The notes: generated from the letters alone by a model not told the origin. DNA of 64,000 nucleotides from a virus (IMGVR_UViG_3300035698_020241:32001-96000), one strand, 5' to 3'. Shown: positions 6,348 to 55,669, counted from the stretch's first letter. A program made the numbers and translations.

Positions 6348-7403
6348 CTATTTTATCCACTTATTTGTGTGTAATTTTACATACGCTTCAGACCAATCAT
6401 AACTGTTATTAACTATAAAAGAAAAAACATCACTAAATCCGTACTTTACACTATACATATTTATATCTTTACACTCTTTATATTTACGAGGGAATAAAAA
6501 GTATTTAACTTTTTTTGCATATTTACTTGGTGATATATCCAATCGTCTACCCTTTCTTTTTTTACCAATCATAAATTTTGTCATTAAATCAATTCCGGCT
6601 TTATCATTATCCGGCGCCACAATTATATATTCATCTGTTAATTTAAATATCTCTTTCATCAAATCGTCTGATATTTCTGCACCCAGACAAGTTGTTCCCT
6701 GCGAACCAATAGTCATGGCATCTAATAACCCCTCTACAATTATGATAGGTTTTTTTCTATCAAATTTATGTTTGTTATGTATGATACTACCTTTTGCTAT
6801 CGTTGGATTTTTATACTTTGGATCCATATCGGACCCTGGAGGACGACGAGCCTGAAAATAAATAATATCTTTATTTTCATCGTATATAGGAATAATTATT
6901 CTACCTTTATAATCATCTTTAAAAGCATATAATAATTCATATTCCTTAGATAGTTTCCTACTTTCACGAAAATCACATAAGAGTTTCAAATATTTCTTAG
7001 CCATAACTCCTTCTTGAGGAAGCATATCCGTTATACAACTATCTAATATATAATTATGATTCTCGGTAGATATCTCTTTTACAATCTTTTCTTTCTTTTT
7101 ATTGGAAAGTTTTTGAATAAGATAATCTGGATTATATTTGAAAAGATCCTTTTTGGCTTGATTTATATCAACACCTTTTATCATTGTATATAATTCAAGG
7201 AATGAACCACTTTTCATACAGTTAAAGCAGTGATACATAGGATTACCATTATTGAAATCAAGATGGAATCTTTTTTTGGTTTGACTTTTTTGTGAATCAC
7301 CACATAATAAACATCGAGCATGAAAATGTGTACCATTTTTTGATACAGTAACTAAAGCAAAAAATTCATACATAAAATCATCCACAACTTGTAAGTCTAA
7401 CAT
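6348..7403 (-). CDS. DNA primase (T4 gp61-like)
   Basis: Zinc-binding CxxCGDS...CFNC and TOPRIM motifs IVEGLLDA and DND. Confidence 0.9.
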   Translation of the reverse strand: MLDLQVVDDFMYEFFALVTVSKNGTHFHARCLLCGDSQKSQTKKRFHLDFNNGNPMYHCFNCMKSGSFLELYTMIKGVDINQAKKDLFKYNPDYLIQKLSNKKKEKIVKEISTENHNYILDSCITDMLPQEGVMAKKYLKLLCDFRESRKLSKEYELLYAFKDDYKGRIIIPIYDENKDIIYFQARRPPGSDMDPKYKNPTIAKGSIIHNKHKFDRKKPIIIVEGLLDAMTIGSQGTTCLGAEISDDLMKEIFKLTDEYIIVAPDNDKAGIDLMTKFMIGKKRKGRRLDISPSKYAKKVKYFLFPRKYKECKDINMYSVKYGFSDVFSFIVNNSYDWSEAYVKLHTNKWIK

Positions 7404-7449: not shown

Positions 7450-7494
7450 CCATTATACACTAACTAATTGTAATTGTAAATATAAATTATATTT

Positions 7495-7686
7495 TTATGC
7501 TAACTCAAAAAAGTAACATTCAAAATCCAATGGTGTATATATTATAGGCTTATTTTTATCCATATCTTCAAAATAACCTTTTATACAATACACTTTACCT
7601 TTTCGTGTTTTGCAATGATGGCAATTTACACAAAGTAATAATTTATTTTTTAATTCCTGGCATTCTTTTAACGGCATCATCTTCAA
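7495..7686 (-). CDS. Small Cys-rich hypothetical protein
   Basis: CxxCxxC motif. Confidence 0.55.
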   Translation of the reverse strand: MKMMPLKECQELKNKLLLCVNCHHCKTRKGKVYCIKGYFEDMDKNKPIIYTPLDFECYFFELA

Positions 7687-8734: not shown

Positions 8735-9109
8735 TTATACTTTACTTGAAAATTCTTTTTGGATAAAATCCAAAAATTTCTTATCAATAAAATCACGTTT
8801 ATACATTTCTCTTATAATATACCAGACAGACTTTTTCATATCATTATAGCAATCATCTTTAAAATCAGCTCGCCATAAATATTTCATAGAATTACCAAGA
8901 TTAAAACCCATATGCTCTACAACATCTATACATTCTACTGGTATATGATTATAATGTGATGGGTGATTTGACCTTTCAGGTCCTATATCTTCACTACCTC
9001 TCAGTATACCATCAGCATCAAGTCCCATTGCTATATCACATATATGATTCTCGAACTTTTCACACAATTTTCCACAATGCGTACATGTCCATTTAGTATC
9101 TTTTTGCAT
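8735..9109 (-). CDS. DUF3310-family protein
   Basis: NHPSHYN...ECIDV...FNLGNSMKYLWRA. Confidence 0.8.
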   Translation of the reverse strand: MQKDTKWTCTHCGKLCEKFENHICDIAMGLDADGILRGSEDIGPERSNHPSHYNHIPVECIDVVEHMGFNLGNSMKYLWRADFKDDCYNDMKKSVWYIIREMYKRDFIDKKFLDFIQKEFSSKV

Positions 9110-11985
9110 TATATTAACTCACATCCTCCTGCAGAACATGCCAACTCTGTGGCTCCTATAGTATAGTCGGAACTTTCGTATATATTCAAATCTTCAAAGT
9201 TTATCTTACGAGGAAAATCTTTTACCAGTTCTTTATATTTTTCTTCATCAATCTCCTCATAAGGAGGTAACTGATAAATTCCTGTATCATATGGTAAAAA
9301 ACTAATACCTGATACTATATCCCAATTCTTGTATACCCAAGCACCAACTTCAAGCCATTCATCATCCCTTACATAACAAGTAATACTTGGTTTATGCTCA
9401 CACCACGCAGTTTGCATTATTCTCCAATGCTCAAGTTGTGCTATTGCAGTTTTATCATTTCTGAATATTGCTCGTTTTGTGGGTGATTTAATTGGAAAGT
9501 CAAAGACAACTGTTGAACATTCATCAACTGTTCCTTGTTCCAATTCAGGGGTATGATTTACTCCTTTGTCTATTAAAAATTTACATATTGGATCTGTTCT
9601 TGAAACTCTTACTCTCCTGATATAATACATTGAATATCGTGGATGAATACCAGAAGATGTGTTAACTAACTGAGATACCGTACCACTTGGTTTGATAGCT
9701 GTAATGGCTGTAGGCATATTAATTCCTAAATTTTTACTCCACTTTTCTGCTACTTTTATAGCAGTGGTTCTCATAGACTCCAACCAATCAGATACTTTCT
9801 CAGATTTATTCTCATTACTCAATACTGGGTGATCCATTATACCTGTAAGTGATACACCAAGTAATCGTTCCTCATCACAATTCACCTTCCAACTTTTATC
9901 AAGAAATTTGAAATCTGTAAGTGTGGATTGTAATACACCAAGTATAGTTGCAAACTTAACTTTTTCAGTTAGATCATTCAGTTTATCACTATATCTAACT
10001 ACTACTTCTGAAAGGTTACAGAACTGGTTTGGTCTTAGAATAATTTCACTACATGGATTTGTACCGAAATCCCAATTTGCATCCCTTCTACCATTTATTG
10101 CTGCTATTCTCTTGGCACCTTCTCTATTGAAAATACCTCTTTCACCTGTACCTGACTTAATAAGTCTTCCCCATTCTTCCATGAATATTGGTATTTCAGG
10201 TCTTTCAGTATAAGCCACAGAATTGTTTGATAACTGTCTGTAAGGCGTTGACATCCAAAATTGTCCCTCTTTAGCCTTCATCATTCTTTGATCTGATAAA
10301 TTTGAAAGACTGATAGATGCGCTCCTTCTTACACCACCTACAACTACAATACTCGCAATATAACAAGCTAAATCATGAACCTCAAGTGAATTGAGTTTCC
10401 TGCCTTTAGCATTATGAAATGTTTGTATTGTAAATTCAATTAATCTTTTCAATGGACCAGGACCCGATGCCCTGCCACCAAATGTTTTCAGTATGGAACC
10501 TTTAGGTCTTATAAGGGTAAAATCAGTGTCAATTTCCTTACCTATGTATAATCCCTCTATGAATTGGCGATAGCCCTCTGCCCAACCAAACTTTGAATCT
10601 TCAAATATTATTACTTCATCACATCTGTTTATCATTGCTGGTATTTCTGGCAGTTTATTAATATGTTGTCTCTCTACTGAAAAACCTACACCACAACCGT
10701 TCATCATGATATACATGATCTCGGAGAGTGCTTTTACTCTATCTATTATTGTATAGGCACAATTTCCTGTTACGATACCATTAGGCATTACAAATGATTT
10801 ATCATCTTCCACTTCAAGACACCATACATCTGATTTAAAAGTATTACCTATATTTTTGACCTTCCAAGCAGTTCTACCATAATTATGCTTATTTTCATCA
10901 AAACCTAACTGATACGATGATATGAAATACCTATATGCTTTATTACTATATTTACCAAGATTTGTTTCTTGATTAACATCACCTTTTGATGTTATATAAA
11001 CACCGGCAATAGGAAAACACTTTTCAATAAAATCTTGTGCTTCTTTAGATACCTGTACTATATTTCTATAACGGGAAATCTTTATATTATCATCATCTTT
11101 TCTTTTGAGATTTGTGTTTTTACCACCATCTCCGTCTAAAAATCCTCTAATAAAAGCCCTTAATAATCTTGGATCATCCACTGAAGGATCTGGTAAGGTT
11201 TTTAAATATTTACCAGTATATACCATAAAATCTCCATCAAGTGAATTACTTGAAGATGTTTTAAATCCTAATTCTTCAAATCTATGTTTATATCTTATAT
11301 CATCTCCACACAATCTTATCATTGATCGTCTTGGTGATCCATCATCATTCTTTGTTACTGTTCCGTCTGCATATACAAGACCGTAAGCCCAATATACCCT
11401 CTCATCTGTAGGGGCTCCATCATACACAAAATCTTCAAACATATTAGGTTGTCCTAATAATGTATGTCCTTCTTTTAATTCGGTAGTTTCACTACCATCC
11501 TTTAATAACCATCTATGGTCCTTTGTTGTATTAACAACAAAAGGTTTTGAATTTCCTTTTTTAAATGTTACAGGATAAAGAAAATCTTTACCATAATTTC
11601 TTACTTTTGCTTTTTTCCAATTACCTTTATGTGTTAATACTACTGTAAAATCACCATCTTTAAAATCTTTAAATGATTTTACACCACATTTTGTAACAAA
11701 CTCTGTTTCTCGTCCAAAGCAGTTGTACCCTGCTATGTTATCATTCTCAAGTGCTGGGCCTGCACTCCACAATGCCCTCATTGAAGGCATTATTTTCTTT
11801 TCAAGAACAAATTCCTTTGCTTTGTCAAAAGCCCTTTGTAAGTTAGTGGGAACCCTATCTCCAAAAAAATCAAAATACCGATCAACAGTCTCTTCCCATG
11901 TTTCTCTTCTCTGCTGATCCCATATCCATCTACTGTAAGTTCTTTTATAAATGAACTCACTGTAAAAACTACTAATGTCCCTCAT
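9109..11985 (-). CDS. nrdJ: Class II (B12-dependent, monomeric RTPR-type) ribonucleotide reductase containing an intein
   Basis: YKRTYSR, MPSMRALW, GCGVGFS, GTNPCSEI, TAIKPSGTVSQL and a C-terminal CxxGxC. Confidence 0.93.
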   Translation of the reverse strand: MRDISSFYSEFIYKRTYSRWIWDQQRRETWEETVDRYFDFFGDRVPTNLQRAFDKAKEFVLEKKIMPSMRALWSAGPALENDNIAGYNCFGRETEFVTKCGVKSFKDFKDGDFTVVLTHKGNWKKAKVRNYGKDFLYPVTFKKGNSKPFVVNTTKDHRWLLKDGSETTELKEGHTLLGQPNMFEDFVYDGAPTDERVYWAYGLVYADGTVTKNDDGSPRRSMIRLCGDDIRYKHRFEELGFKTSSSNSLDGDFMVYTGKYLKTLPDPSVDDPRLLRAFIRGFLDGDGGKNTNLKRKDDDNIKISRYRNIVQVSKEAQDFIEKCFPIAGVYITSKGDVNQETNLGKYSNKAYRYFISSYQLGFDENKHNYGRTAWKVKNIGNTFKSDVWCLEVEDDKSFVMPNGIVTGNCAYTIIDRVKALSEIMYIMMNGCGVGFSVERQHINKLPEIPAMINRCDEVIIFEDSKFGWAEGYRQFIEGLYIGKEIDTDFTLIRPKGSILKTFGGRASGPGPLKRLIEFTIQTFHNAKGRKLNSLEVHDLACYIASIVVVGGVRRSASISLSNLSDQRMMKAKEGQFWMSTPYRQLSNNSVAYTERPEIPIFMEEWGRLIKSGTGERGIFNREGAKRIAAINGRRDANWDFGTNPCSEIILRPNQFCNLSEVVVRYSDKLNDLTEKVKFATILGVLQSTLTDFKFLDKSWKVNCDEERLLGVSLTGIMDHPVLSNENKSEKVSDWLESMRTTAIKVAEKWSKNLGINMPTAITAIKPSGTVSQLVNTSSGIHPRYSMYYIRRVRVSRTDPICKFLIDKGVNHTPELEQGTVDECSTVVFDFPIKSPTKRAIFRNDKTAIAQLEHWRIMQTAWCEHKPSITCYVRDDEWLEVGAWVYKNWDIVSGISFLPYDTGIYQLPPYEEIDEEKYKELVKDFPRKINFEDLNIYESSDYTIGATELACSAGGCELI
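10762..11721 (-). mobile_element. 320-aa intein with LAGLIDADG endonuclease in nrdJ
   Basis: AGYN|CFGRETE...IVTGN|CAY junctions; LAGLIDADG-like YGLVYADG and FIRGFLDGDG; VWCLEV block F. Confidence 0.9.
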
Positions 11986-34528: not shown

Positions 34529-34550
34529 TCCTCTATCCTTCTATTTAAAA

Positions 34551-34950
34551 GTGGAGGACGGCGGGAATCGAACCCGCGTCTTGAATAAAATCATACATAA
34601 TTCATACGCCTATTTCCGTCAACGTACTTTGAAGAAAAGGACGGATACCGTTCTACAAAGTTGTGATATTGTTTGTTTAAGTCAGTCGGTCAATATCCAA
34701 GCCAAACTTTCCGATCCTACTAATTTATGCCTCACTAAGATGTAGGATGCCCTTTAGTGAAACATGCAACTATATAGCTGCAAATGCGGGAGTTGGAACA
34801 AGTGACTTGAAGAAGTCGCTTATCTTAGTTACCGCGTTTTTTATAAATGTTTTAGCATTTATCGTTTTGTAGTCATTTTAAGGTAGCCTACTACATTCTA
34901 CCAGACGCAATTACATACTCATACTACCCAATCGAAACCTTTTCGCCCCC
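34551..34950 (-). ncRNA. ssrA: tmRNA; tag AKTFIKNAVTKISDFFKSLVPTPAFAAI (34856-34770)
   Basis: 5' GGGGGCGAAAAGGTTTCGA; 3' GACGCGGGTTCGATTCCCGCC..TCCA; ATAAAT-GCT resume context. Confidence 0.92.
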
Positions 34951-44232: not shown

Positions 44233-44567
44233 TATACTCCTTTATACCAAATTATAAATCTTTTATCATTATTTGGTAAAAACATTTCACTTACATTAAT
44301 GATGTTTTCAACAGGTATACATTCCTTTTCTAACCACTCATTCATAACATTCATTATATCTGTATTTTTAATAATTACCTGTCCAAAGGTAACTACCTTA
44401 AATGTTTTTCTTTTCAATTTCTTACCGGCTTTATAGAAGTCAATTTCTGATATAACTTCTCTATTGATCTTTGCTCTTTCCTCATTGAGACATTCTACAT
44501 ATTCAATATTAACCCTCATTATTATCTCCTTAATTTGGGGTTTTAAACTCATAATTATATTTTTCAA
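44232..44567 (-). CDS. Hypothetical protein
   Basis: Coupled ORF. Confidence 0.5.
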   Translation of the reverse strand: MKNIIMSLKPQIKEIIMRVNIEYVECLNEERAKINREVISEIDFYKAGKKLKRKTFKVVTFGQVIIKNTDIMNVMNEWLEKECIPVENIINVSEMFLPNNDKRFIIWYKGV

Positions 44568-44782
44568 TCACTAAAATCATTATATCAAAAATTGCACGCG
44601 ATGTAAATTAAAAAATGCGTGATTTGTTTTCAAAACAAAACAAGGGGTTAGATGATTCTAACCCCTTATGTATCTGATAAAATAATTTATACATCTCCAA
44701 CATGTATGCTGGTTTTTAAATCCTGTAAAATAACTTCCACATTCTTTACAATGATGTACAAAGTCAATTCGTTTTTTCATTA

Positions 44783-45520
44783 TTATCTCCTCCCATTATA
44801 CATACCATCACCTTTAACTGCGATAATATGTCTCACATCAATTCTCCTCTGTTTTCCGATATCCTTGTGGAAATCACTTTCCCAGATAAAAACAGATTTT
44901 GGAGTGGTTCTAATAAGGTCTCTCCACTGCTTACCACCCTTGTAATTTATCTGTACCCTGTAATTATAATGATTTCTACTATAATCAAAATTCTTTTTAA
45001 GTCCAAGAGACACGAATTTTGCATTCGCTATCTGTTGTTTCATATTTTTTACAACTTTTTTATTTTCAGTGATTTTATCCTGAACTTCAAGTCCGATTTT
45101 AAGGTCGTCACTATCAGCCATTCCTACAATACCAAAAGTATGTCTATAACACTGGATTTTCCAGATTCCTTGACTTTTGAAGTCAAAAACACTGTATTCT
45201 GTGGCTCCTGATAATCTACCGCGAGTTATAGGACGAACTTTTATAATAACTCCACGAATATTACCTTTTCTTGATGCCCATGTAACAATGGCACCAACCA
45301 CAGCGTTATAAACTTTTTCATTAAAACTGCCGGCAGCCCTTTTAAATTTATCTTCATCAAAAGTTTTACCGTCAACAGAAAGACCCCATCTACGGGCTAA
45401 ACTTAAAAGCATATCAGGATCATTTTTCCATTGATTAACTTTTTTCATCATATTTGTTGCATTAGGAACATTGGAGACATCGGGATGAACTTGTTTTGCT
45501 ATATCTGTATATAAACTCAT
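44783..45520 (-). CDS. Hypothetical protein with N-terminal J-domain-like HPD motif
   Basis: Start MSLYTDIAKQVHPD after AAGGAG. Confidence 0.65.
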   Translation of the reverse strand: MSLYTDIAKQVHPDVSNVPNATNMMKKVNQWKNDPDMLLSLARRWGLSVDGKTFDEDKFKRAAGSFNEKVYNAVVGAIVTWASRKGNIRGVIIKVRPITRGRLSGATEYSVFDFKSQGIWKIQCYRHTFGIVGMADSDDLKIGLEVQDKITENKKVVKNMKQQIANAKFVSLGLKKNFDYSRNHYNYRVQINYKGGKQWRDLIRTTPKSVFIWESDFHKDIGKQRRIDVRHIIAVKGDGMYNGRR

Positions 45521-45606
45521 CTTCAAAATCTCCTTTCGTTTTATTTTCAATCATTAAATACATTATACCAACTCAAGGGTATATCTATTGTATAGGTACA
45601 CCCTTT

Positions 45607-45870
45607 TTATTTTGGACAGATATGTTCTCTTCGTAGTCTTGAACTTGCATTCATTTCTGTAATTAACTCACCACAATCTTTACATTTGTATATAGTGTTA
45701 CAACCACTATTCATTTCATGTGTGAATTTATTACCATTCCATAAATCAGAATCAACAGACCTTACTAATTCTAATTTTAACATCTTCATTTTTCTATTAA
45801 CATTAATTTTACCGTGTAACAATATCCATGTGCCTAAACACGCCATACCAGTTATTACAGTTATATACAT
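45607..45870 (-). CDS. Small membrane-anchored Cys protein
   Basis: RBS directly after repeat copy 2. Confidence 0.6.
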   Translation of the reverse strand: MYITVITGMACLGTWILLHGKINVNRKMKMLKLELVRSVDSDLWNGNKFTHEMNSGCNTIYKCKDCGELITEMNASSRLRREHICPK

Positions 45871-45937
45871 TTTTTAATCTCCTTTTCTACCAACTCAAGG
45901 GCGTCCTATTGTATAGGTACGCCCTTAGACTTTGAGA

Positions 45938-46111
45938 CTACATACTAAGATCAATAACATTAAAGTTTTTACGAGTGAGTCTATTGGAAACCTTGATCAA
46001 GTTGGTGATAAAAGCTCTAACATTTTTGAAGCTTTTGAATTCACGAATTTTCTTGGCTCCTGCCATGATGGGATTACCATCTTTTTCAATTACAAATATT
46101 TTTGTACTCAT
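45938..46111 (-). CDS. Small basic protein, paralogue of 47274..47447
   Basis: R.FKS....R.F..N.IKVSN.LT.K.F is shared. Confidence 0.7.
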   Translation of the reverse strand: MSTKIFVIEKDGNPIMAGAKKIREFKSFKNVRAFITNLIKVSNRLTRKNFNVIDLSM

Positions 46112-46187
46112 AATAATCAATCTCCTTTCGTTTTATTTTTCAATCTATAATTAGTATAACAAATTTCAAAACCGTTGTAAATTACTT

Positions 46188-46352
46188 TTATTCTTTAATC
46201 TCAACATCAACAGTGGAAATCTTTATAGGATAAAATTTTGAACATTTTTTGTTGTTTTCATCCTTAACACAAGTACAACAATTACCACTTCCGTCGTTCA
46301 TTGAAACATCCGAACATGGTCTTATAAACTGGTGTAAACAAATAGTTTCCAT
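46188..46352 (-). CDS. 54-aa Cys-containing protein, paralogue of 35703..35876
   Basis: Start METICL after AAGGAGATTGAA. Confidence 0.7.
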   Translation of the reverse strand: METICLHQFIRPCSDVSMNDGSGNCCTCVKDENNKKCSKFYPIKISTVDVEIKE

Positions 46353-46353
46353 T

Positions 46354-46509
46354 TCAATCTCCTTCACATTTTGAACATTTAGGTTTACCGGCTTGATAAA
46401 TGCCACAAAATTCACAGGTATATTCTATGTTTCCTGGATGATCTTTTACCCATTTACATGAACAATTAAATCCATAAATAACATTATCACAAGTACATTG
46501 TGTTTCCAT
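46354..46509 (-). CDS. 51-aa Cys-rich protein (not in ORF track)
   Basis: METQCTCDNVIYGFNCSC...CEFCG...CSKCEGD with RBS after repeat copy 3. Confidence 0.7.
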   Translation of the reverse strand: METQCTCDNVIYGFNCSCKWVKDHPGNIEYTCEFCGIYQAGKPKCSKCEGD

Positions 46510-46575
46510 TTCAATCTCCTTTTCTACCAACTCTAGGACGTCCTATTGAATAGGTACGCCCTGTGAGTCTAAAAT

Positions 46576-46800
46576 CTAACGTCTGCCACCTTTTTTTTGT
46601 TTCTGCTGACCGACACGTCTTTTGATTTTTACTGGAACTTTTGTTCTTTCGATTATTTCCCATGCAAAATGACAACCAGTTCCTATTTTTGGATTATCAA
46701 CAAACCTGGTCTGTATGGCTGGATCTGGATAAACGGTACATTTTTCAGTTTCCCAGTCAACTTTTTCACATTTTAAACAAGCGTAGGTTAAATTAGTCAT
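46576..46800 (-). CDS. Small Cys-containing basic-tailed protein
   Basis: RBS after repeat copy 4. Confidence 0.65.
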   Translation of the reverse strand: MTNLTYACLKCEKVDWETEKCTVYPDPAIQTRFVDNPKIGTGCHFAWEIIERTKVPVKIKRRVGQQKQKKGGRR

Positions 46801-46880
46801 TTTATTATCTCCTTTATAGTTTAATTTTCTACCAACTCAAGGACGTACTATTATATAGGTACACCCTTTTGGGAGAGTTA

Positions 46881-47024
46881 TTAGTCATCTTTATGGTCTT
46901 TACCACATACGGTACAAGTATACTTGTATCTTCCTTTTTCACCGCCTACAGTGTGTAAACGAATTTTTTTACCGTATCTTTTATCTTGAAAATCACTTTT
47001 ACATGTGCATCTGAATTTCTTCAT
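46881..47024 (-). CDS. 47-aa zinc-ribbon protein (not in ORF track)
   Basis: MKKFRCTCKSDFQDKRYG...CTVCG behind a promoter and RBS. Confidence 0.7.
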   Translation of the reverse strand: MKKFRCTCKSDFQDKRYGKKIRLHTVGGEKGRYKYTCTVCGKDHKDD

Positions 47025-47096
47025 TTTATTGTCTCCTTTATTGTTTAATTTGTTTATGTATCAATAATAACAAATTCTAACATTCTTGTAAATCAA

Positions 47097-47214
47097 AAAA
47101 GATAGTGCCTTATATAGCGCTCTCGGATTTACATCCAAGAAGTTATTCTGGCATTGATAAAGGTTATGAATAACTCAACTAATCCCTTATCTATCATACA
47201 GGTGACTATCTTTT
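47097..47214 (-). ncRNA. Candidate 118-nt pseudoknotted ncRNA
   Basis: 10-bp closing helix, 8-bp stem, 9-bp crossing helix, GTAA-capped hairpin; G-U pairs fix the strand as minus. Confidence 0.6.
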
Positions 47215-47273
47215 CTACCAACTCAAGGGCGTCCTATTGTATAGGGACGCCCTGTATTTGTTGGAGATAAATC

Positions 47274-47447
47274 CTACAGACGGATCATTTCAAAATCTTT
47301 AATAGTGAGACCATTGGACACTTTGATTATGTTACGGACAAAATTTCTTGCTTTACCAAGGCTCTTGAAAACACGACATTTTGTACCCTCAGAATTAGCC
47401 ATTAACAGACGTCCTTTTTTTGTTACTGCACACTTTTGAGCCTTCAT
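47274..47447 (-). CDS. 57-aa basic protein, paralogue of 45938..46111 (not in ORF track)
   Basis: MKAQKCAVTKKGRLLMANSEGTKCRVFKSLGKARNFVRNIIKVSNGLTIKDF... Confidence 0.7.
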   Translation of the reverse strand: MKAQKCAVTKKGRLLMANSEGTKCRVFKSLGKARNFVRNIIKVSNGLTIKDFEMIRL

Positions 47448-47634
47448 ATTCTTATCTCCTTTATTTTTTGTTTGTTTGTTTGTTTATGTGTACATACTAT
47501 CAAATCCGAACATTCTTGTAAATCTTTTATTTAAAATCTTTTTAAAGACATACGGATCCAACTTTGATCCATAAACCTTTAGAAATACTTTAAACTTTGC
47601 AGTTTTAACTATTTGTTTTTACTCTGTTTTGTCT

Positions 47635-48777
47635 TGATTGACACGCTAGCGTTTTAAGTGTTATTGTTAAGACCCTGATAATATTGTTAATTCACCTCGG
47701 CCGATGATGTTTCACAATACATGTAAGTACAACTTACATTGTGTCTGTTACCTCTTTGATCTGTATTCATTATATCAAATCCGAAAGCCGTTGTAAATGA
47801 AAAATAATAACTAACGAATTCAACACTTTGTAACTTACTGATTTTTCAAACTCAATCTCGATCACTGGAAAGATTATAACATACTGAAAACATTTTGTAA
47901 AGAGAAAAATAACCTGTAATGGTTTCAGTGGTTTACTCGAAGGGTGTGAATCTCCAGCGCAGAACCGATATGGTGTGTGGCTCAAAAACCGCCCCTGGAG
48001 CCACGGAGATTGCGGAGGATCGACGGAAAAATCTTCTGAAGGTCTCAGTAAGGGGTAAGGCAGCCTGCGCAAAATCCCAAAAGTAAAGATAATTTTATAT
48101 AATGGCCATGACCCTTCAAGGTGTTGATATATCACTATCGAGATATGATGGTGTTGATACCACATGGTGTTGGGATATAAACACTCATAAGTCCGTGATA
48201 TGATGATGCTCTGGTGCGGATTACCGTATAGGACCAACGGAGAGTGCGAGGACTGGGCGGAAATCTGATCTGAAGGTACTGACATCAACCTTAGATACCA
48301 AGATCAGTCTGCGCAAAATCCGTCAGACTGATAATGATTTCAGATAGTTACCTGAGCTGTTAGATACCAGATCGTCCAAGCCCTTGAAATCATTGAGAAT
48401 AATTCTTTGTTTACATACCAGTGGCCGTTTGTTATAATGTATACATTGATCGGGTAACACACTGAGTGAATTCAAAGAGTTACAAAGTTATAAAGTGTTG
48501 AAATTGTTCAGGAAATTTTTTGATTTACATTTGAGTTGAGATTTGATATAATGGAAACAGATTGAGAAAGTAATACAACAAAAGTTGTAACAACAAAAGT
48601 TGTACAGTAAAAGTTGTTACACAATAAAAGTTGTAATTAAGATTTTTGATTTACAAGTAAAATGAAGTTTGTTATAATGAGTATAAGAATAGAATTGACT
48701 ATCACCAATTTCATTAATGGACTGCAGACCATAAATGGAATTCAACAATAACTTTTAAAACGCTAGCGTGTCAATCA
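47635..48777. repeat. 23-bp perfect inverted repeat pair (47635-47657 and 48755-48777) with longer imperfect flanks
   Basis: TGATTGACACGCTAGCGTTTTAA and TTAAAACGCTAGCGTGTCAATCA. Confidence 0.9.
48580..48634 (+). repeat. Four direct repeats of AAAAGTTGT (iteron-like)
   Basis: Copies start at 48580, 48595, 48609 and 48626. Confidence 0.85.
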
Positions 48778-49288
48778 CGATAAAACAAAAAAACAAATAA
48801 TTGAAAAAATTATAAAGATTATAAAATGTTTAATTCAGGCTTAACGATAGAGTTAATATGTTGATAATGTACCTGTTTTTAGTATACCATTGTAAATTCA
48901 GACATAATTATCACCTTTGTACCTATCATACACCACGAGTAGTCACTGATAGCTCTACATTGCGGATTTTGTGATCTTGAAAAGTAACTGAGGAGAAAAC
49001 AATCAAACAGTCATTTTATAATTTTTATAATTTTTTGAGTTAAAAGTAAATGGTTTCAATATGTTGATAATTTAATGTGGGTTATCTTGACGGAATAACT
49101 GGTTCGCAACCAAACATGGAAATGTCGAAAGTATAACGAGGTATTGCGCATCGTATCAGCTTTTGTCCAAAGTATCAGTTACTTTGGCGAGTTCGGTAAG
49201 GCAATAAATATCTTTTGATTATATCAATTCCTATTATCAACATTTTAAAGTTATTTACTTAACAGTTTGAAATGTTTATGAATTATTT

Positions 49289-49399
49289 TATACTGAGGCG
49301 AAAATGGTACACGTCCTGTTGAGAAGCAGAGTTGGTAAGGTTCGATTCCTTACAATTAATAAACTGGAGTCAAACGTGGGTTCGACCCCCACCAGTATA
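49289..49399 (+). ncRNA. tRNA-like element with two tandem T-arms
   Basis: TATACTG/CAGTATA closing stem; GTAAGG-TTCGATT-CCTTAC and GTGGG-TTCGACC-CCCAC. Confidence 0.55.
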
Positions 49400-49482
49400 T
49401 TTTTTTTGTTTACAAACATTTCGTTTTTGTGTATAATGAAGTTGAGTTTGAATTTAACATTTAAAAAATAAAGGAAATTACG

Positions 49483-49740
49483 ATGGGCTTTGACAAAACA
49501 AAAGATAAAGAATTAATGTCGAAAGAGTTAGAAAGTGGTCTTCGCATTTCGGTTTTTTCTTATAACGGCGGCGAAGCCAAACTCCAGATCGGCCCCAGAG
49601 TTTTTGATAAAAGGGACGGATCCAAGGGTTACGGAAAAGCTGGCAGAATGTCTCTTAAAGAGGCTGTTGCTTTGGCTGGTCTTATGCCTCGTATATCAGA
49701 GGTTATGAACGGTCTTCCGGCTAATTCTCTTCCTGAATAA
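49483..49740 (+). CDS. PC4-like putative ssDNA-binding/transcription protein
   Basis: SVFSYNGGEAKLQIG...GRMS..EA pattern; strong RBS and promoter. Confidence 0.55.
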   Translation: MGFDKTKDKELMSKELESGLRISVFSYNGGEAKLQIGPRVFDKRDGSKGYGKAGRMSLKEAVALAGLMPRISEVMNGLPANSLPE

Positions 49741-55595: not shown

Positions 55596-55669
55596 CGCCT
55601 AAAGGTAAAAAAATTAATAGGGCGTTGGTCATGAGATCAACGCCCTTTTTTATTGGAGAATATGAGTTT

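Follow-up and report, generated by a model that had tools for sequence, protein, structure and literature searches.

Within a 64,000-nt stretch of viral DNA (the window; bases 32001-96000 of the 126-kb IMG/VR virus contig IMGVR_UViG_3300035698_020241), we characterized a short hairpin element that occurs five times within 1.7 kb, in one orientation and on the transcribed (minus) strand. Every copy is confined to the gap that separates a stop codon from the following ribosome-binding site, and begins 2-20 nt past the stop. Judged by its sequence, the element does not qualify as an ordinary terminator, and four of its five copies do not qualify as promoters either. We tentatively favor the explanation that it is a read-through intercistronic RNA module, composed of a hairpin and a constant leader, that may double as homology for recombination. 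Our analysis establishes the anatomy of the element, its position, its sense-strand bias, the constraint on its sequence, and the variable gene content of the homologous junction in relatives.

Anatomy and sequence constraint of the element

The exact pattern TACCAACTCWAGGRCGTNCTAT matches four copies, against none expected in 100 shuffles. A looser regular expression and R1, a covariance model made from the element copies, add a diverged fifth copy and nothing else, leaving no sixth copy in the 126-kb contig. R1 scores the minus strand at 64-75 bits and the plus strand at 16-20 bits. An earlier interpretation of the same DNA (the sequence-only reading) had proposed a five-copy hairpin with a 12-13-bp stem and a near-invariant tail, and these searches bear it out. 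The irregular spacing that it described (given there as 308-637 bp) also holds; the start-to-start distances between successive copies are 386, 305, 637 and 321 nt. The five copies are as follows (the genes that flank them are listed in the next section):

47210..47253, minus strand: copy A; hairpin 47253-47226, tail 47225-47210; 20 nt past the o57a stop; R1 score 74.3 bits
46824..46867, minus strand: copy B, in the o47/o74 gap; stem with two G-U pairs and one C-U mismatch; 70.1 bits
46519..46562, minus strand: copy C, in the o74/o51 gap; one G-U pair; tail abuts AAGGAG and ATG; 71.4 bits
45882..45925, minus strand: copy D, in the o57b/o87 gap; 43/44 identical to copy A; 75.5 bits
45566..45604, minus strand: copy E, in the o87/o245 gap; 13-position stem with the bulge paired; C-G changed to U-A; 63.8 bits

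On the minus strand, the unit reads A-GGGYGU, a one-base bulge, CCUAU, a 3-nt loop, AUAGN-ACGYCC-U and then UWGAGUUGGUA, that is, a stem of 7 bp, a 1-nt bulge and 5 bp. The bulged base is A in most copies, C in copy A, and paired with an inserted base in copy E. The tail core GAGTTGGTA is identical in all five copies, preceded by T in four of them and by A in copy C. The conserved block of copies A-D reaches GAAAA, for a length of 44 nt, and in copies C and D it continues through AAGGAGAUU into the ribosome-binding site and ATG, for 54 nt. The fixed leader that follows the hairpin, UUGAGUUGGUAGAAAA, differs by one base in copy C, and its GAAAA is replaced in copy E. Here, a perfect extended -10 (TGGTATAAT, hexamer at 45567-45562) directly continues the tail, and the sequence 3' of it is homologous to the promoter at 44607 (repeat families D7 and D15). 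This fusion and the minus-strand sense of the array go beyond the sequence-only reading.

The hairpins fold with energies of -14 to -23 kcal/mol (z -2.7 to -4.9), and 96.7% of stem cells are paired across the copies. All four one-sided stem changes yield G-U pairs in the sense RNA, for which the antisense equivalent is A-C. One further stem pair has changed on both sides, forming a C-G, U-G, U-A series. This pattern of substitutions favors pairing within the transcript, or else within the DNA strand of that sense alone. We also asked for a longer stem between the upstream flank and the tail and found none that stands out, the stability with native flanks being equalled by 21-52% of random flanks.

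The constraint on the sequence itself is best seen in cassettes A and D, which share the layout promoter, 57-amino-acid (aa) open reading frame (ORF), element. That two cassettes carry paralogous ORFs in an identical layout had been noticed earlier, and the comparison confirms it: o57a and o57b are paralogues at 42% residue identity (E 1e-11). The spacers between stop codon and hairpin are unrelated and the promoters only broadly alike. By contrast, the two elements differ solely in the bulge base. Because this near-identity stands next to ORFs that have diverged so far, the sequence of the element must itself be kept constant, by selection or by gene conversion. In a phylogenetic tree, o57b groups with the homologue of another phage and not with o57a (support 86/81); the approximately unbiased (AU) test keeps the sister grouping possible (p 0.19). 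Whichever tree holds, the cassettes are old and the element looks young or frozen. Either almost every base of it is selected, which would hint at recognition by a factor, or gene conversion or recombination has homogenized the copies.

Recognition by a factor is the core of one alternative, in which the element would primarily be a sequence-specific protein site: an RNA operator or cleavage site for a phage translational repressor or endoribonuclease that coordinates cassette shut-off or processing. The loop, bulge position, stem and tail core are conserved base by base beyond structural need, and a bulge on the 5' arm, a common protein determinant in the MS2 and PP7 operators, is present here as well. 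The arrangement of a hairpin close to the ribosome-binding site is like that of the T4 gp43 operator (PMC3014915). Nevertheless, we regard this alternative as unlikely, given the several stem changes in copies B and E and the lack of a candidate binding protein. RNase III is not encoded on the contig, which is ~53% complete (CheckV). RegB was not found on it either, in a search that is uninformative, since control genomes gave no match. A variant with a DNA operator or roadblock, built on the half-sites AGGGCGT-N14-ACGCCCT, is less likely, copies A-D having no promoter for it to control. CsrA-type GGA sites were rejected by inspection, the upstream GGA being missing from copies B and E.

Promoters, terminators and genes of the array

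The array begins the leftward (minus-strand) arm of a divergent transcription pattern that issues from a non-coding strand-switch region at ~47.6-49.4 kb. Its ORFs encode 47-87 aa and are mostly without family matches. Three sigma-70-type promoters (TTTACA-N17 with a TG-extended -10) are provided for nine ORFs; they start at 47522, 47092 and 46181 and correspond to the interspersed TTTACA promoters of the sequence-only reading. In the direction of transcription, the features are:

47494..47522, minus strand: promoter P1 (TTTACA-17-TAGTAT, TG), for the unit o57a, copy A and the non-coding stretch
47274..47447, minus strand: o57a, a 57-aa basic protein; homologues in the same position in at least 16 relatives' loci
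47095..47209, minus strand: non-coding structured stretch 3' of copy A, ~120 nt without an ORF; folds to -33.1 kcal/mol
47064..47092, minus strand: promoter P2 (TTTACA-17-TATTAT, TG), for the unit o47, copy B, o74, copy C, o51 and o54
46881..47024, minus strand: o47, a Cys-rich protein of 47 aa; anchor gene kept in relatives
46576..46800, minus strand: o74, an ORFan cassette without a homologue in relatives' loci
46188..46509, minus strand: o51 and o54, abutting Cys-rich ORFans with no element in between; GGAGATTGAAATGGAAAC at the junction is common to both
46153..46181, minus strand: promoter P3 (TTTACA-17-TATACT, TG), for the unit o57b, copy D, o87, copy E and o245, up to the terminator at 44669-44640
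45938..46111, minus strand: o57b, the o57a paralogue (42% identity)
45607..45870, minus strand: o87, an ORFan with a zinc-ribbon-like CxxC at its C-terminus
44783..45520, minus strand: o245, a conserved anchor gene; seed for collecting relatives
44640..44669, minus strand: canonical intrinsic terminator with a 13-bp stem and a U-run, unlike the element; closes the P3 unit

These units place the element between cistrons inside operons. The promoter scan detects no promoter of their own for o74, o51, o54 and o87, the genes behind copies B, C and D. Copies A-D themselves have no -35; their TAGAAA forms a -10-like box, from which transcription would begin within or past the ribosome-binding site. 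In copies C and D, it lies 11-13 nt from the ATG, so that transcripts begun there would be without an evident Shine-Dalgarno sequence. On this geometry, promoter function of copies A-D was ruled out. Likewise, none of the five copies carries a U-tract on the sense strand, as had been stated before, and the terminator scan calls no sense-strand copy. The same scan does detect U-run terminators elsewhere in the contig, at 44669-44640 (minus strand) and 55620-55645 (plus strand). Because the element has no U-run, because copies A-D contain no usable promoter and because true terminators are present in the same contig, neither function suits it, and the earlier view that it is not an ordinary terminator stands.

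A weaker form of termination would be a leaky or factor-dependent terminator, or a pause site, by which expression is graded from gene to gene within the operons. A stable GC-based hairpin just after stop codons would suit such a role, and stem-loops of the PeSL family in phage RB49 are effective terminators (PMC2839356, PMC4122927). However, an intrinsic terminator joins hairpin and U-tract, and no richness in U is seen here in the nine nucleotides past the stem (UUGAGUUGG; in copy C, UAGAGUUGG). Together with the silence of the scan at the element, next to nearby U-run terminators that it calls, and with the genes that have no promoter of their own, this makes the idea quite improbable. As a separate observation, the canonical terminator at 55620-55645 (plus strand), AGGGCGTTGGTC...GATCAACGCCCT followed by TTTTTT, has the GGGCGT/ACGCCC base of its stem in common with the element, and differs from it in having a U-run and another upper stem.

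Downstream of copy A, the non-coding stretch is predicted to close with an 11-bp helix, in which GAAAAGAUAGU of the element (using its GAAAAG) is paired with ACUAUCUUUUU right before P2. The sequence-only reading had set each copy after an ORF stop and before the next ribosome-binding site or, for its copy 5, a structured RNA. This placement holds, the copy with the structured ORF-free stretch behind it being copy A. At the position of the stretch (47095-47215, minus strand), relatives carry a conserved 'RKADV...' ORF of 59-76 aa.

The two ORFs behind copy C share the 18-nt string GGAGATTGAAATGGAAAC at their starts (window 46340-46520, minus strand), and the stop codon of o51 lies within the ribosome-binding site and ATG context of o54. 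This arrangement suggests a tandem duplication or coupling; the similarity between the o51 and o54 proteins is not significant (E 1.0).

In the strand-switch region, we observed repeated, GC-richer non-coding modules of the GGAGG/CGGAGGATCGA type (window 47997-48043 and 48231-48277). Modules of this type are also present in relatives (L016:7403-7498, 7590-7685; L015:5220-5316, 7287-7383, 7470-7566). They may represent a conserved structured RNA family and are without an Rfam match.

The homologous junction in relatives and known repeat families

The contig (GC 31.7%) encodes ribonucleotide reductase, primase, NAD-ligase, RNA ligase, RtcB and a gp44-type clamp loader that is ~33% identical to its counterparts in cyano-, pelagi- and methylophilales myophages. 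On the basis of this gene set and of the clamp-loader similarity, we assign the phage, which is uncultured and from a salt lake, to the T4-like group as a distant member. Near-identical DNA is contained in four salt-lake metagenome DNA runs. In the ribonucleotide reductase ORF (958 aa, window 9109-11985, minus strand), residues 271-353, which precede the reductase domain at 408-957, match an endonuclease family weakly and may be an inserted or fused segment resembling a homing endonuclease.

We compared the array with 30 metagenome loci whose o245 homologues are 36-48% identical; two closer homologues, P0001 (77%) and P0002 (56%), lie outside this set. The relatives keep the gene order o57, o47, o245, o283. 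Between o47 and o245 the content varies: o245 follows o47 directly in three loci, one or two unrelated ORFs intervene in five others, and in this phage the interval holds five ORFs bounded by copies B-E. Because the relatives share the anchor genes and differ in what lies between them, the array is, at the level of gene content, a cassette-like hyperplastic early region. This is what the sequence-only reading had held, against which an order of cassettes invariant among relatives would have spoken.

The element is absent from all 30 loci, also when they are searched with R1. Instead, at least seven relatives have a terminator-promoter composite immediately after o47. Its -35, TTTACA, is part of the 3' arm of its hairpin; the promoter spacer holds the U-run, after which comes TGT-TACACT; and two pairs show compensatory changes. 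After o57, relatives carry a second conserved stem-loop, which is nested and overlaps a TTGACA box. Its inner helix covaries: AAGCCCTGT/ATAGGGTTT, AAGCCTTGT/ATAAGGTTT and AAGCTCCATT/AATGGGGTTT. These structures are found at:

L012:1233-1295: composite after o47
L013:288-350: composite after o47
L015:9910-9972: composite after o47
L016:9893-9955: composite after o47
L018:2202-2264: composite after o47
L019:332-394: composite after o47
L020:9913-9975: composite after o47
L020:8405-8480: stem-loop after o57
L016:8745-8820: stem-loop after o57
L018:1290-1365: stem-loop after o57
L015:8550-8620: stem-loop after o57
L012:250-320: stem-loop after o57

By the definition of Comeau et al., the composite after o47 is, in its sequence features, a textbook PeSL, and it provides a clean PeSL family outside cultured T4-like phages. 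Copies B and A of the element thus occupy the positions of the relatives' PeSL-type composites. This correspondence raises the possibility that the element is a disarmed descendant of the composite, which would have lost its -35 and U-run, kept the tail TGGTAGAAA as a decayed extended -10 and spread by duplication. In a MAFFT alignment, the GGGTGTA, the CCCT foot and the TGn -10 of element and composite fall in register; copy E retains TGGTATAAT together with the downstream homology to the 44607 promoter; and 'half' PeSLs have been described (PMC4122927). The similarity is short, however, and was found after the fact. Furthermore, R2, a covariance model of the composite, matches none of the five copies even when run without filters and with E values up to 10 allowed, and R1 matches none of the composites. 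Descent from a PeSL is a reasonable idea that is not established, and as an explanation of the element we consider it possible but doubtful.

In a PeSL, a stem-loop that terminates transcription is directly followed by its own sigma-70 (or Mot) promoter (PMC2839356, PMC4122927). The element is like PeSLs and PmSLs in being a repeated intergenic stem-loop motif whose end takes in the Shine-Dalgarno sequence and the ATG of the gene behind it, and in being clustered in the hyperplastic early region of a T4-like phage, among small ORFans and adjoining variable content. It is unlike them in that copies A-D lack a -35, copy E has an extended -10 only and none has a U-run; promoters P1-P3 stand apart from the element and are not preceded by it; and its stem is longer and far more conserved in sequence. 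Of the PeSL features, it therefore shows the location among hyperplastic ORFans, and neither a sigma-70-like promoter of its own nor, as far as sequence tells, terminator function. With four of five copies promoterless and no terminator U-run in any, the element is outside the PeSL definition, to which the earlier interpretation had likened it, and relatives' joints hold composites instead.

Recombination between short repeated regulatory cassettes of T4-type phages is documented, as are PeSL mini-circles and indels in RB49/phi1, T4/PST and KVP40/nt-1 (PMC2839356, PMC4122927). The element could be primarily a joint of this kind at the DNA level, a PeSL-like linker through which homologous recombination inserts, deletes and exchanges early cassettes, with the RNA hairpin secondary. 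As a reading of the element as a whole, this is rather unlikely; a recombination-joint role as such is plausible. The hyperplastic early region of a T4-like phage is where such linkers would be expected to act, the content of the o47/o245 junction differs among relatives, copies are nearly identical over 44-54 bp next to diverged cassettes, and o57b groups with the homologue of another phage. On the other side, a sister relationship between o57a and o57b is compatible with the AU test, the joints of the relatives differ and neither covariance model connects them to the element, and the sense-specific G-U pattern is unexpected for a purely double-stranded DNA function. Contigs from the four salt-lake runs (depth 2-6x) match the window exactly and span copies A, B, C and E; they contain no copy-to-copy joint, deletion or circle, which at this depth says nothing on rare recombination.

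In its form, the element is also similar to the REP and BIME sequences of enterobacteria: an imperfect bulged palindrome of ~30-40 nt with conserved sequence, transcribed, and intercistronic or 3' in operons, where REPs are thought to stabilize the upstream mRNA against 3' exonucleases. REPs occur genome-wide in hundreds of copies, often as inverted pairs, and are associated with a RAYT gene (Higgins, Newbury; RAYT transposases). Here, by contrast, the element is confined to 1.7 kb, in which its five copies are direct repeats, and the Y1 transposase (PF01797) is absent from the contig. The RNase III sites of the T7 early region, which the sequence-only reading had named as a precedent, likewise consist of mutually similar hairpins that recur in the gaps between the cistrons of an early polycistronic mRNA, and T7 processing leaves the hairpin on the upstream product. 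T7 sites, however, are stacked helices of ~20 bp with an internal loop. The 12-13-bp stem is too short for this class, its flanks pair no better than random flanks and RNase III is missing from the contig, so the precedent is not supported.

The comparison with integrons extends to layout only. As with attC sites, an ORF is followed by an imperfect palindrome with an extrahelical base, at an irregular spacing set by ORF length. The incomplete contig contains no integrase, attI or Pc, nor a tyrosine recombinase (PF00589), and promoters are interspersed in the array. The R''(RYYYAAC)/R'(GTTRRRY) cores of attC are lacking; the tail GTTGGTA fits GTTRRRY at 5/7 positions, and the left flanks are unrelated among copies. 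The integron-like character once proposed is accordingly not upheld. On the defining features tested, the element is not a member of the PeSL, REP, RNase III-site or attC families as far as its sequence allows assignment. It resembles PeSL or REP in some respects, and we view it as a variation on the repeats that T4-type phages are known to carry.

With 25 tRNA genes and a tmRNA, the phage is tRNA-rich; it also carries RtcB and RNA ligase, and the 7-bp, bulge, 5-bp geometry of the element agrees with that of an acceptor/T-arm minihelix (7 bp + 5 bp). One could therefore picture tRNA-derived or tRNA-mimicking punctuation, with the bulge at the point of attachment of the tRNA body, processed by RNase P or RNase Z. 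The 3' arm and tail, GCCCTTGAGTTGGTAGAA, align to the 5' half of tRNA-Thr(cgt), GCCCTTGTAGTTCAATTGGTAGAA (window 61254-61328, plus strand), with GCCCTTG and then AG and TTGGTAGAA matched and two gaps. Yet a shuffle test of this post hoc alignment is marginal (38-100/2000), the 3-nt loop is not a T-loop, CCA or discriminator context is lacking, ARAGORN and Rfam call nothing at the element and its stems are shared with no phage tRNA. We find the idea hardly credible. The tRNA genes themselves lie on both arms, and all printed tRNA sequences end in CCA except that of tRNA-Val, which ends in TATC; the tmRNA is full-length (window 34549-34950, minus strand; 108.6 bits).

Searches beyond the relatives returned the element nowhere else. 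The region, compared by Megablast with 50,697 phage records, had no match there, and protein-seeded IMG/VR scans with o245 and o283 gave no relatives. Patterns of the element's tail and hairpin met only chance matches in IMG/VR, in coding sequence and without the hairpin; a single occurrence in L112 of the tail with a ribosome-binding site, within the end of an ORF, was judged to be chance. GTDB genomes contained one match, about the chance expectation and again without the hairpin, which leaves no host reservoir of the element there. Against Rfam, no match reached the gathering threshold, and relaxing the cutoff to E 5 across 44500-49500 brought up nothing relevant.

Proposed working of the element

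Taking these observations together, we infer read-through by RNA polymerase, a stabilizing, processing or insulating role, and recombination. The element would be a 44-nt lineage-specific module that is transcribed within three sigma-70-driven early operons and, having no U-tract, would let the polymerase pass. In the transcript, its hairpin would mark the 3' side of the upstream cistron as a possible barrier to 3' exonucleases or landmark for cleavage within the tail. The constant leader UUGAGUUGGUAGAAAA would then lead up to the ribosome-binding site of every small downstream gene in an identical, unstructured form, and would insulate that approach from the upstream cassette. In the DNA, the five near-identical patches of 44-54 bp would be long enough for recombination machinery of the T4 type, and recombination between them would account for both the homogenization of the copies and the cassette-like turnover.

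Several observations weigh against this explanation. Covariation is weak among five near-identical copies, 204/500 shuffles matching the observed values, and the 4:0 wobble bias reaches p ~0.06 at best. Both strands fold with similar energies, copy A better on the plus strand. The conservation of loop, stem and tail exceeds what a purely structural RNA role explains. Finally, since no close relative with the element was found, recombination at it is not observed, and the salt-lake contigs (depth 2-6x) display none.

A bolder proposal would be that the missing half of the genome encodes a phage factor (a site-specific nuclease, a recombinase or an RNA-processing enzyme) for which the element is the dedicated recognition site. 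Such a factor would both cut the early polycistronic RNA and move promoter-less cassettes. We consider this highly improbable; if true, it would mean that a lytic T4-like phage captures cassettes in the full sense, by a system that differs both from integrons and from passive homology of the PeSL type.

T4-type phages diversify early 'ORFan' regions via short repeated regulatory cassettes, and the element would extend this idea. It is a near-invariant punctuation of cassettes with neither promoter nor terminator, which replaces the terminator-promoter composites of relatives at the same joints. As an RNA stabilizer, insulator or processing site, the element would offer a compact natural part for polycistronic constructs, with a practical impact limited by the phage being uncultured. 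If it serves as a recombination joint, any conserved intercistronic leader can assume the role of a PeSL.

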